Shown here one piece after another: positions 1-3,000 of a DNA stretch of 28,315 nucleotides. Within the stretch, counting starts at the first letter, position 1. Each line of letters opens with the position of its first letter. The position numbers are program-made. Source of the DNA: a virus (taxonomy: Duplodnaviria; Heunggongvirae; Uroviricota; Caudoviricetes); IMG/VR virus record IMGVR_UViG_2703718786_000008; one strand, given 5' to 3'.

Positions 1-3000
1 GCGTATGGCGTTGAGATAGAAAGTCTGGTGCTGGAGATAAATGCACCGGCAGCATAATAAAAAAAGAGCCAGCGACTGACCTGAAAGAAGACGCTGGCTA
101 AAAGGCCTTATATGTTTGTAGAGACTTATTTTTCACAGACAGCAATGATGCCTGTCAATATATTATCAATATGCGGATTGTTTCAGTTACAGATGCTTTA
201 TTAAGGAAAAAAACAGCCAGCACTGACTTTCGGTGGAGAGGTGCTGGCTCAGAAGGATAGTTGGATTTCACATGATACTTATGCCTGGCGGTATATTTTC
301 TGACAGACAGTGACGGGTGTTGTCAAGATATTGTGTCATTTATAACCTGAATCAGGGGGTGGCCGGAATGTTATCTGGCATTTTTAGCAGAGCCTGAATG
401 CCATAATCACGGCTCCCGGAGTTGGCCGTCAGTGGGTGACACTGGCGGCTTTTTTGTTTTTCTTTACTTTCATTTTCTGTCGGCGGTGACGGAGACATAC
501 ATCAGATGGAAAAAATCACAACAGGTGTGTCATACACCACGTCAGCGGTGGGGACGGGATACTGGTTACTGCAGCTGCTGGACAAAGTCTCTCCGTCCCA
601 GTGGGTGGCGATAGGTGTGCTGGGGAGTCTGCTGTTTGGCCTGCTGACGTATCTGACTAACCTGTATTTCAAAATCAGAGAGGACCGTCGTAAGGCGGCG
701 CGGGGAGAGTAAAGCGATGAAGAAAAAATACGAACTGGTTGTTAAAGGGATAAATAATTACCCGGATAAGATTACTGTTACTGTGGCACCGGAAATTGGT
801 GGGTATCCGTCACTGTTGTTGCCAGATGTGGCGATTAGTCTTGACCGTACTGAAGGAGCCACGCTGGAGTTTTACGAAGCTGAGGCGAAAAAGCAGGCGA
901 AGCAGTTTTTCATGGATGTTGCTGCCGGGTTATGTGAAGGGGATGGTCCGTTGCCGGAAAAGCGGCCCATCATTTTAGAGGCGCAGGACGTGTTGATAAC
1001 CTACAGAGGAAAGCTACCGGGAAGAATTACTGGTTCTCTGAAGACGCCACCGACGGCATTGCGGTCAGAAAAAGATGATATTGAATCACGTATTGAACAA
1101 CTGGAGTGCTATATCTCTGAATTGAAAAAAGCACCCCAACAAAAGATGAGGTACTTGCATTAGACGAAATGAAAGAAACTATTCTTGATCTTGCGGCGCG
1201 TCTAAGCTGCGCTTCACGGTCGAAAGAGCATTTTCAGCAGCCCTGAGGAATCTTTTATCATCACGAGCATCGGTCTTTGGTATTTCTTTAATGAGATGTT
1301 CCATTTCGGCGATCAGGTAATCTGACACAGCGTTATTCTTACCAAGTGCATCCATGGCTTTGATTATCTTTGGGAGAAGAAAACCGACCTGTAACTCAAG
1401 AGTGAAAATTCTGTCAAAAAGCGCTGTATTTTCTTCATTCATATCTGTTCATTATCTTTGCGAGGCAGCCATCTCACATTGTTGGGTTTACGCCAGTGCC
1501 CACCACCGGCGGGCTGAAGACTTAACATATCCAGGGGTCCGGAACCGATAAATCCTGATAAATATCCATGAACGCAAAAATCAGATACGGCCTGTCGGCT
1601 GCCGTTCTGGCGCTGATTGGTGCAGGGACGTCTGCGCCTGAAATCCTCGACCAGTTTCTTGACGAAAAAGAAGGTAACCACACCACGGCATACCGTGATG
1701 GTGCGGGGATCTGGACCATCTGCCGCGGTGCCACCCGAGTGGATGGTAAGCCTGTCGTCCCGGGTATGAAGTTATCGAAGGAAAAGTGCGACCAGGTTAA
1801 CGCCATTGAACGTGATAAGGCGCTGGAGTGGGTGGAGCGCAATATTAAAGTACCGCTGACCGAACCCCAGAAGGCGGGTATCGCGTCATTTTGTCCTTAT
1901 AACATTGGCCCCGGTAAGTGTTTCCCGTCTACGTTTTACAGACGGATTAATGCAGGTGATCGAAAAGGTGCCTGCGAAGCGATTCGCTGGTGGATTAAGG
2001 ACGGTGGCAGAGACTGCCGTATCCGCTCAAATAATTGCTACGGTCAGGTATCCCGGCGAGACCAGGAAAGTGCACTGGCGTGCTGGGGAATTGACAGATA
2101 AGCAGAATATTTTGCTGAAAAATGACGTTGGCCAACGCGGGCGGATAACACGAAATCCTGCGAACTGGCAAAAACTAAGTGAATAAAAGTAAAACCCCGT
2201 TTGTTGGCCGCAAACGGGGTTTTGTGTTTCTGACCTTGAGTAAGGCAAGGGAGAACATGGGAAAGTATAAACGAATTCTGTTGAGATTGACTATGAAAAA
2301 CGGCCTTGAACTGAAAGCGCCTGTAACTGATGACGTCAGCAGAGCGCTGGCTTTTGCTATTAAGTGGGTGGCGGTCGGTATTGCTGTGTCTCCGATGCTG
2401 TATGGGCTGGCAAAACTGGTCATTGCGTTGAAATCGTGAAGAGGATTAAGCATGTCAGACAAGCTCATAACGCTGGCGAAGATCCTCTGTGTAATCGTCG
2501 GCATTTCATTTTCACTAATGCTGGTTGCTATTTGCTTTTCCACTGCCTGGCGCGTCTTAACTTTGTCATGGCTGGTGGGGTGAGGGGGATATGAACCGTG
2601 TTCTGTGTGTGGTGATTATTGTCCTGCTGGTAGCCTGTGGTGTGCTTAGTCTGGGGCTGAATCATTACCGCGATAACGCCATTACCTACAAAGCGCAACG
2701 CGATAAAAAAGCCAGTGAGCTGAAGCTGGCGAACGTGACAATTACTGATATGCAGGTACGCCAGCGTGATGTCGCTGCACTTGATGCCAGATACTCGAGG
2801 GAATTAGCCGATGCGAGAGCTGAAAATGAAACTCTGCGTGCTGATGTTGCCGCTGGTCGTAAGCGCCTGCGCATCAACGCCAACTGTCCAGGCTCCTTGC
2901 GTAAAGCCCCCATCACCTCCGGCGTGGATAATGCAACCGGTCCCCGACTGGCAGAAGCCGCTGAACGGGATTATTTCATCCTCAGAGAACGGCTGATGGC

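Follow-up and report, generated by a model that had tools for sequence, protein, structure and literature searches.

Introduction

Lysis by lambdoid phages is usually described as three steps, carried out by holin, endolysin and spanin. Accessory membrane proteins of lysis are known in addition, namely the antiholins lambda S107, P1 LydB and T4 RI, and P2 LysA. In the lambdoid late operon, Q-modified RNA polymerase reads through terminators (lambda Q antitermination). A classical moron, which the lysogen expresses, has its gene between a promoter and a terminator; lambdoid morons, which Juhala et al. are said to have described in 2000, include bor, lom and stx, as well as ant, which reportedly lies between R and Rz in Shiga toxin (Stx) phages. 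The releasin gp25 of phage Mu is a DUF2730 protein (PMC9239132). Herein, we analysed a window of 28,315 nucleotides (nt), the whole stretch of the Caudoviricetes record IMGVR_UViG_2703718786_000008 in IMG/VR, which is an Escherichia coli lambdoid prophage with its lysis cassette at the left end. The gene order is S-R-ORF1-ORF2-Rz, and the spacer from the endolysin stop (2101) to the Rz start (2591) measured 489 nt, close to the 490 bp or so given in a preliminary description of this DNA. Within it lie an intrinsic terminator hairpin and two short open reading frames (ORFs). We found that ORF1 and ORF2 are real protein-coding genes under purifying selection, and it is highly probable that they are late-expressed genes for small membrane proteins.

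ORF1 and ORF2 are genes under purifying selection

The two frames, at 2257-2439 (60 amino acids, aa) and 2452-2583 (43 aa), have good ribosome-binding sites and end just before Rz, as had been described. Non-coding filler from a recombination junction had been named as the alternative, and frame conservation with synonymous bias in related prophages as the check. Selection was assessed with 35 (ORF1) and 28 (ORF2) distinct DNA variants from IMG/VR loci. In both ORFs the annotated frame had the lowest Nei-Gojobori pairwise ratio of non-synonymous to synonymous rates (dN/dS) of all six frames, with 0.25 in ORF1 and 0.27 in ORF2, compared with 0.09 for the endolysin and 0.53 for Rz. On a minimum spanning tree, in which each change was counted once and Salmonella copies with 25% DNA divergence were added, the ORF1 core (codons 13-60) had 86 synonymous versus 40 non-synonymous changes (omega 0.16, p=1.6e-24) and ORF2 had 77 versus 59 (omega 0.27, p=2.3e-14). 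Both frames therefore showed the synonymous bias in question, and shifted frames gave little or no synonymous excess.

No internal stop occurred in any of these variants. The homologues are confined to Escherichia and Salmonella, and the lengths of 60 and 43 aa hold down to about 55-65% identity. Each exact protein was found on at least 996 contigs under no name other than 'hypothetical' or 'transmembrane protein', and PGAP already annotates both as hypothetical proteins. Chance open frames in recombination filler would suit a mosaic junction and the truncated or rearranged copies that exist (L003, L024-L032, L134-L146). Set against this are the synonymous excess that the shifted frames largely or wholly lack, the conservation of start and stop as well as length across Escherichia and Salmonella, the PHROG families that both proteins match and the contig counts. 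The selection analysis refutes the chance-ORF reading, to which we assign a negligible probability, and the filler suggestion falls with it, the frames being open, their lengths kept and their changes mostly synonymous. In a synonymous-site test, 4 of 16 positions in ORF1 codons 3-18 were polymorphic versus 22 of 42 elsewhere; since this difference was not significant, the test lends no support to an overlapping element at the nucleotide level in ORF1.

The features of the spacer and of its right border are as follows.

2102-2189, plus strand: conserved non-coding segment after the endolysin stop
2191-2231, called on both strands: intrinsic terminator hairpin with flanking tracts
2247-2254, plus strand: ORF1 Shine-Dalgarno (SD) sequence AAGGGAGA, read from the sequence and kept in alignment A3
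2257 (ATG) to 2439 (TGA), plus strand: ORF1, 60 aa, WP_001303555.1
2264-2293, minus strand: weak promoter-like site, hypothetical, within ORF1 codons 3-12
2440-2445, plus strand: ORF2 SD, AGAGGA
2452 (ATG) to 2583 (TGA), plus strand: ORF2, 43 aa, WP_001280929.1
2591-3058, plus strand: Rz i-spanin, PF03245 (E=2e-46)
2811-2996, plus strand: Rz1 o-spanin, embedded in Rz, PF06085 (E=4e-19)

ORF1 and ORF2 are predicted to be membrane proteins

The single-transmembrane (TM) helix proposed earlier for each peptide was recovered by prediction, both in hydropathy and in the AlphaFold2 helices. ORF2 is strongly hydrophobic: its best 19-residue Kyte-Doolittle window was 2.86 (residues 11-29), AlphaFold2 gave a single helix of residues 2-42 (predicted local distance difference test score, pLDDT, 90), and the protein is predicted to be a single-pass TM peptide. 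For ORF1 the best window was 1.9 (residues 38-56) and the predicted helices were 3-14 and 22-59 (pLDDT 74). At its N-terminus stands a basic helix (MxKYKRILLRL); the conserved motif MKNGLExxAP and then a long C-terminal helix follow, and the last 29 or so residues of this helix are moderately hydrophobic (AFAIKWVAVGIAVSPMLYGLAKLIIAL). The models predict a single-pass, tail-anchored-type membrane protein of a narrow enterobacterial prophage family. The internal Met13 of ORF1 (2293-2295), preceded by GAGG in most alleles, is a possible second start.

ORF1 matched phrog_1115, phrog_4493 and phrog_3246, and ORF2 matched phrog_4906, all of unknown function. An ORF1 profile searched against 1.8 billion cluster representatives retrieved only 24 clusters, all of them 40-65-aa relatives that share the motif and have a tail of either of two kinds (...YGLAKLIIALKS or ...IRWW), and gave no bridge to any named family. 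When genome contigs were searched by profile with the ORF1 alignment A1, there were 29 pattern matches, none of which was confirmed.

In the window allele, ORF1 and ORF2 stand in one frame, with the TGA plus four codons between them, and a natural fusion, ORF1(13-60)-GRGLN-ORF2, exists as the 96-aa database protein P0040. This shared frame is not kept in other alleles (gaps of 14 and 17 nt).

The terminator hairpin and ORF1 as one unit

The strong terminator of the preliminary description is present as the hairpin AAAACCCCGTTTG-TTGGCCG-CAAACGGGGTTTT at 2191-2223, followed by GTGTTTCT; the stem pairs 2191-2203 with 2211-2223, and the loop is 2204-2210. Its fold reached -21.3 kcal/mol (z=-4.1), and none of 200 shuffles was as stable. 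The GC-rich stem-loop, the U-tract and the compensatory changes are those of a Rho-independent terminator, and termination activity is predicted. Because a 5' A-tract is present, the terminator scan also called the hairpin on the minus strand, with the tail ACTTTTATTC, and the hairpin looks bidirectional. Among 18 distinct versions the outer nine pairs were invariant and the inner pairs changed compensatorily, pair 10-24 being UG, AU, GC, UA or GU. In the hairpin alignment, 95% of the cells were paired, and the covariation score was above those of all 500 shuffles and all slid controls.

Essentially all full-length copies of ORF1 have the hairpin some 30-60 nt upstream, the longer of these spacings falling where a leader mini-frame is inserted, and this pairing was seen behind five unrelated endolysin types. 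Tail-fibre-linked homologues of ORF1 are preceded by a different hairpin, likewise flanked by an A-tract and a T-tract, and the 5' A-tract is present in all lineages. When the window was compared with an unrelated cassette that has a GH108 endolysin, homology began exactly at the hairpin and stopped at the ORF2 stop codon. Judged from these comparisons, the terminator and ORF1 are one mobile unit.

ORF2 is linked to Rz

ORF2 is a homologue of ECs_1966 in the E. coli Sakai prophage Sp10, where the order is R, the post-endolysin segment of about 90 nt, ant, ECs_1966 and Rz, and where the hairpin is absent. By tblastn, ORF2 was present in 276 phage records, mostly Stx converters such as Min27, P13374, BP-4795, PA8 and Shigella 7888, in which the homologue is usually called 'hypothetical' or has been left without a feature ('none'), an annotation gap in Stx-phage genomes. 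ORF1 was present in only 14 phage records, including PhiR12 and PhiR5, and the full module is present in the active phages of these two series, which were propagated on K-12 and on E. coli C. On this distribution the module is made of two units, the hairpin with ORF1 and ORF2 with Rz. A largely unannotated Rz-linked peptide gene that is nearly universal in Stx phages is unusual.

The segment between the endolysin stop and the hairpin (2102-2189) has a distribution of its own. Its identity to the counterparts in H-19B and in Stx2c phages is about 90%, and it is common to Stx phages and Salmonella prophages irrespective of the endolysin type. In alignment A5, segments of about 85 nt follow RrrQ-type, 161-aa, 168-aa and GH19 endolysins, that is, four or five unrelated genes (counterparts at L154 3786-3870, L149 3320-3405, L158 2828-2915 and L157 2070-2150), and the segment is kept whatever comes downstream of it. 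AAAAATG and CGGA(T/A)A.CAC.AAATC are invariant, and an 8-codon ATG...GGA TAA frame of constant length and variable codons occurs in five of six segments. The segment may serve as a linker when modules are exchanged, or act as an RNA element.

Distribution of the module and the possibility of late cargo

In K-12 Qin, rrrQ and rzpQ overlap; since the entire insert is missing there, the module is accessory. The 489-nt spacer is 100% identical to many chromosomes (Stx-producing E. coli, STEC, and others), and parts of it were found in 1822 of 5426 complete genomes. The R-ORF1-ORF2-Rz order of the window was found at 72 of about 150 loci. At 38, ORF1-ORF2 follows a GH108 endolysin, the holins of the cassette being Phage_holin_8 and a 3TM holin, and a 60-aa lipoprotein gene, not Rz, begins about 5 nt or less after ORF2 (L100 3340-3537; other GH108-type loci, L086-L133); no PF03245-type Rz was found at these loci by similarity to the window Rz or by a Pfam scan of neighbouring ORFs in L100. 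The lipoprotein has the lipobox LVGC, a 30-aa mature part and two further Cys, and matches phrog_7528, of unknown function. In Salmonella prophages, an ORF1 homologue with its hairpin stands directly before Rz, and the upstream gene encodes a 161-aa lysozyme (paired with Phage_holin_2_3) or a GH19 enzyme (with Phage_holin_3_1), or is ant. Many relatives have other R-Rz inserts such as ant, or none.

Overall, the module was seen with the holin families PF04971, PF16931, PF05449, PF16080 and PF05106. The gaps were 12-22 nt between ORF1 and ORF2 and 2 or 7 nt between ORF2 and Rz, and 10 nt between ORF1 and Rz when ORF2 is absent. ORF2, or ORF1 if ORF2 is absent, ends a few nt before the next envelope gene.

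The same slot also takes small TM ORFs in other arrangements (L136 2814-3363, L155 2797-3168, L003 827-1077). Among these are a chimeric ORF1 C-terminus of 47 aa, extra peptides of 49-57 aa that have an ORF1-like AFAIR..IRWW helix, ORF1 paralogues in tandem, and ORF2 placed ahead of ORF1; the ORF1 family appears to duplicate and shuffle.

Such a distribution could also arise if ORF1 and ORF2 were late cargo unrelated to lysis, that is, inner-membrane proteins in accessory-DNA hot spots, with the Rz position as a tolerated insertion site and with roles such as superinfection exclusion, blocking of a host membrane function or help in virion release. Salmonella prophages do have ORF1-family genes, at times as tandem paralogues, downstream of tail-fibre and DUF4376 genes (L147, L155), and the R-Rz junction also takes ant and other small TM ORFs. 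The presence of the module varies among close relatives, and it does not co-vary with a particular holin, endolysin or Rz allele. However, by far most loci embed the genes in the lysis cassette, packed against Rz or the lipoprotein gene; PADLOC gave no match; and lysogen-expressed morons have their own promoter, whereas here none was seen and a terminator precedes the gene. We regard the cargo explanation as rather unlikely.

Transcription and the possibility of an antisense-controlled toxin

A simple consensus scan found no plus-strand promoter-like site between 164 and 3142, and the 30 or so nt from the hairpin to the ORF1 ATG contain only the SD. Given that no promoter was seen after the terminator, ORF1 and ORF2 would be transcribed only by terminator-resistant, Q-modified polymerase. 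A gene unit that starts with its own bidirectional terminator and in which no promoter was seen is unusual.

On the minus strand, the promoter-like site of the window consists of TAGTCA, an 18-nt spacer and TATACT, and agrees with 9 of 12 consensus positions. The 25%-diverged locus L147 has a comparable site with a different -35 (TTGGCC, 16 nt, TATACT), and L155 has no equivalent. Sites are thus present in two of three lineages; a 9/12 match is the chance level of the scan, and an independent -35 has an estimated p of about 0.1. The predicted antisense RNA of about 70 nt would consist of a 5' stem-loop and the terminator (-24.6 kcal/mol, z=-4.2). A leader fold that would mask the ORF1 SD is weak, as is the equivalent antisense 5' stem (-4 to -10 kcal/mol), and the variants, few in number, do not clearly favour either strand.

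These features are the basis of a type I-like toxin-antitoxin (TA) explanation, in which ORF1 would be a membrane-damaging peptide whose start is covered by the cis-antisense RNA ending at the hairpin, and in which the upstream terminator and the antisense RNA (from ORF1 codons 3-12) would jointly keep the toxin off in lysogens. In its favour, the 5' A-tract recurs in all lineages, including the unrelated tail-region hairpin, upstream of which a separate plus-strand terminator already lies; this consistency suggests that the hairpin may terminate a minus-strand transcript. The minus-strand sites of the window and of L147 fall at the same codons, the predicted RNA has a 5' stem-loop and a terminator, and the Salmonella 8-codon leader frame over the ORF1 GTG start is reminiscent of mok/hok coupling. 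Short convergent small RNAs (sRNAs) with shared terminators are documented in these prophages (PMC4104026). The explanation is nevertheless improbable in our view: the promoter match is at chance level, the independent -35 carries the modest p given above and L155 is without a site, and there was no Rfam family at threshold, no Pfam type I toxin family and no toxin promoter.

The leader frame just mentioned belongs to Salmonella alleles with about 27 extra nt between a strong SD and ORF1 (L149 3478-3504; L157/L158 2988-3014). It reads ATG TGT AGG GAG G.G T.T TCC CTG TGA, and its stop overlaps the GTG of the ORF1 homologue (GTGA). This layout, as read from the alleles, would suit termination-reinitiation coupling.

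Whether the hairpin or the predicted antisense RNA corresponds to a known Sakai sRNA was checked against the EcOnc list (PMC4104026, Table S2) and HnrS (PMC13502914), and this identity was rejected, as none of the mapped sRNAs lies at a post-endolysin hairpin. EcOnc52 maps after the 1.85-kb ORF of Sp4, and EcOnc22 between tail genes of Sp15. Likewise, no Hfq-bound sRNA peak mapped in Sakai Sp4, Sp10 and Sp15 lies at such a hairpin; the absence is no test of the toxin explanation, because the ORF1 unit was not found in these regions (Sp10 was checked directly). In Sakai Sp10 (L154 5320-5368), the 66-nt sRNA HnrS (EcOnc10-12; PMC13502914) lies immediately 3' of Rz, on the antisense strand; the window sequence after Rz (3059-3530) differs from that of Sp10, and HnrS seems absent from the window.

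Possible coupling to Rz

A gap of 7 nt separates the ORF2 stop from the Rz ATG, and the SD of Rz (GAGGGGGA, 2582-2589) overlaps this stop. With such spacings (2 or 7 nt, or 10 nt for ORF1 if ORF2 is absent), the frames could be pure coupling leaders, whose translation delivers ribosomes to the Rz start while the peptides themselves are irrelevant, and the GH108 cassettes likewise put the lipoprotein gene a few nt after ORF2. Pure leaders are very improbable, however, since the amino acids are under purifying selection and the hydrophobic helices and motifs are conserved. Rz is found without such a leader in K-12 Qin and lambda, and ORF1 homologues exist without any Rz.

A proposed late accessory module of the lysis cassette

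The explanation that we favour is that the R-Rz spacer would be a mosaic accessory module of the late operon, composed of the junction segment of about 85 nt, the hairpin terminator, ORF1 and ORF2. The terminator would keep ORF1 and ORF2 silent in the lysogen, and the two would be made together with holin, endolysin and spanin from the Q-antiterminated late transcript, the close spacing (12-22 nt, then 2 or 7 nt) suggesting coupled translation into Rz. Their products would insert into the inner membrane late in infection and, without being essential, modulate the disruption of the envelope, with effects on the timing or efficiency of lysis or on how spanin or holin behaves; a core role in lysis is not likely for them. 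As a whole, this explanation has in our judgement about an even chance of being right. That ORF1 and ORF2 modulate lysis is a tentative proposal drawn from gene context, possible but on balance doubtful. The most specific version is unlikely: here ORF2, and with it ORF1, would be an unrecognised, late-only and Rz-coupled inner-membrane component of lambdoid lysis cassettes, those of essentially every Stx-converting phage included, that tunes spanin or holin action and the timing of lysis and of Stx and phage release, with ORF1 silenced in lysogens by its dedicated bidirectional terminator and possibly by the cis-antisense RNA.

Several observations weigh against the favoured explanation. Homologues of ORF1 stand behind tail-fibre genes in other Salmonella prophages (L147, L155), outside the lysis cassette, once as two tandem paralogues; a place next to Rz is therefore not obligatory. 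Some prophages have a truncated ORF2 (L024-L032), and K-12 Qin is without the module; any effect on lysis must therefore be dispensable. The same ORF1 and ORF2 alleles occur with Rz alleles that are 53-100% identical, and with several holin families and endolysin types. Searches of Pfam, NCBIfam, PADLOC and PDB matched neither protein and gave no homology link to a lysis function, and the Rfam scan of the region returned nothing above threshold (best matches no higher than 25 bits versus gathering scores of 47-50). Finally, the absence of a promoter depends on the simple consensus scan.

The earlier suggestions of a holin or spanin modulator or a toxin-like peptide are possible. The distribution, which spans four or more holin families and five or more endolysin types and, for ORF1, reaches outside lysis cassettes, argues against a partner-specific antiholin or releasin role. 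Since the module accompanies many holin, endolysin and Rz alleles and is dispensable, as shown by close relatives without it, a general effect on the membrane step is favoured over a partner-specific antiholin, releasin or spanin role. Three points are absent from the preliminary description: the terminator-ORF1 unit, the identity of ORF2 as an Rz-linked small gene of Stx phages, and the fact that the split between R and Rz is not general.

In sum, the cassette holds two further genes that are under selection, predicted to be membrane-targeted and predicted to be expressed late only. If the peptides alter lysis timing, this would bear on the yield of Shiga toxin and phage from an induced STEC cell; if they have no measurable effect on lysis, they are a small family of phage membrane proteins, useful for annotation and unsurprising. 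A lysis specialist would find the locus worth a deletion experiment, though not startling.

Other features of the lysis cassette

The genes upstream of the spacer are as follows.

506-712: S21-type holin, PF04971
717-1163: DUF1327/YdfR gene
1179-1442, minus strand: 87-aa ORF, phrog_18136, without a Pfam match
1568-2101, plus strand: endolysin of the RrrQ type, PF00959 (E=1.9e-25), phrog_7

The endolysin is 91% identical to K-12 RrrQ (locus L084), and its N-terminus is hydrophobic and rich in Gly and Ala; its sequence, read with PMC8136144, suggests a signal-arrest-release (SAR), or signal-anchor, enzyme. The DUF1327/YdfR-like ORF has 148 aa, the DUF1327 match stops at residue 112, and PGAP annotates the counterpart in an identical genome as a truncated pseudogene. 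The 87-aa minus-strand ORF between this gene and the endolysin appears to be a second insertion, between S and R.

Upstream of the holin gene, the window has two terminator-like hairpins with A- and T-tracts within 55-260 (about 60-100 and 208-250). In prophages of enterohaemorrhagic E. coli, the slot 3' of pR' houses convergent short anti-sRNA genes of the AgvB/AsxR class (PMC4104026), and it is this slot that the pre-holin hairpins occupy.

Comparison with known systems

A search of the literature by accession, locus tag and phrase found nothing on these ORFs or on ECs_1966 in the searchable literature, and the locus was compared with four kinds of described systems. Like antiholins and releasin, ORF1 and ORF2 are small membrane proteins of a lysis cassette, as hydropathy, AlphaFold2 and gene order indicate, are predicted to be co-transcribed with it and are dispensable for lysis; the possible second start at Met13 of ORF1 superficially resembles the dual-start motif of antiholins. 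Unlike antiholins and releasin, they have no sequence relation to holin, antiholin or releasin families (no Pfam or NCBIfam family at E<=1), and ORF1 also occurs outside lysis cassettes. They are not bound to one holin, the constant partnership expected of a specific antiholin being replaced by five Pfam holin families. Nor are they bound to SAR endolysins: the module also follows GH108 and GH19 enzymes, the N-terminus of the GH108 enzyme is not hydrophobic (sequence as read), and there was no DUF2730 match as in releasin. Compared with spanins, only about 14 residues (ORF2) or 2 residues (ORF1) extend past the helix, there is no lipobox, and the true Rz/Rz1 lie downstream.

Resemblance to type I TA systems (hok/sok, ibs/sib, shoB/ohsC, tisB/istR) lies in a hydrophobic single-helix peptide of 40-60 aa, a likeness of physical character alone, in a structured 5' region, in a possible cis-antisense RNA ending at a terminator and in a leader frame over the start (Salmonella alleles). 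In contrast to them, the locus has no Pfam or Rfam family and no toxin promoter, and its antisense promoter is a weak consensus match; the ohsC match in Rfam scored 22.7 bits versus a gathering score of 50 and lies on the wrong strand for the model.

ECs_1966 of Sakai and its homologues in 933W-like Stx phages are the same gene as ORF2 (about 80-88% identity) and stand directly upstream of Rz; there, however, the gene follows ant without the hairpin-ORF1 unit and is often unannotated. As in morons, variably present extra DNA with sharp homology borders occupies a module junction of the late operon, and the module sits in the R-Rz slot that ant takes in Sakai Sp10. Unlike in morons, the terminator comes first and then the gene, no promoter was seen and expression is predicted to be late only. 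The genes, already known to annotation pipelines as hypothetical proteins, fit accessory small membrane proteins or extra late-operon DNA, and with their 'terminator then gene' order they would be accessory DNA whose expression is confined to antiterminated transcription, an inversion of the classical moron layout.

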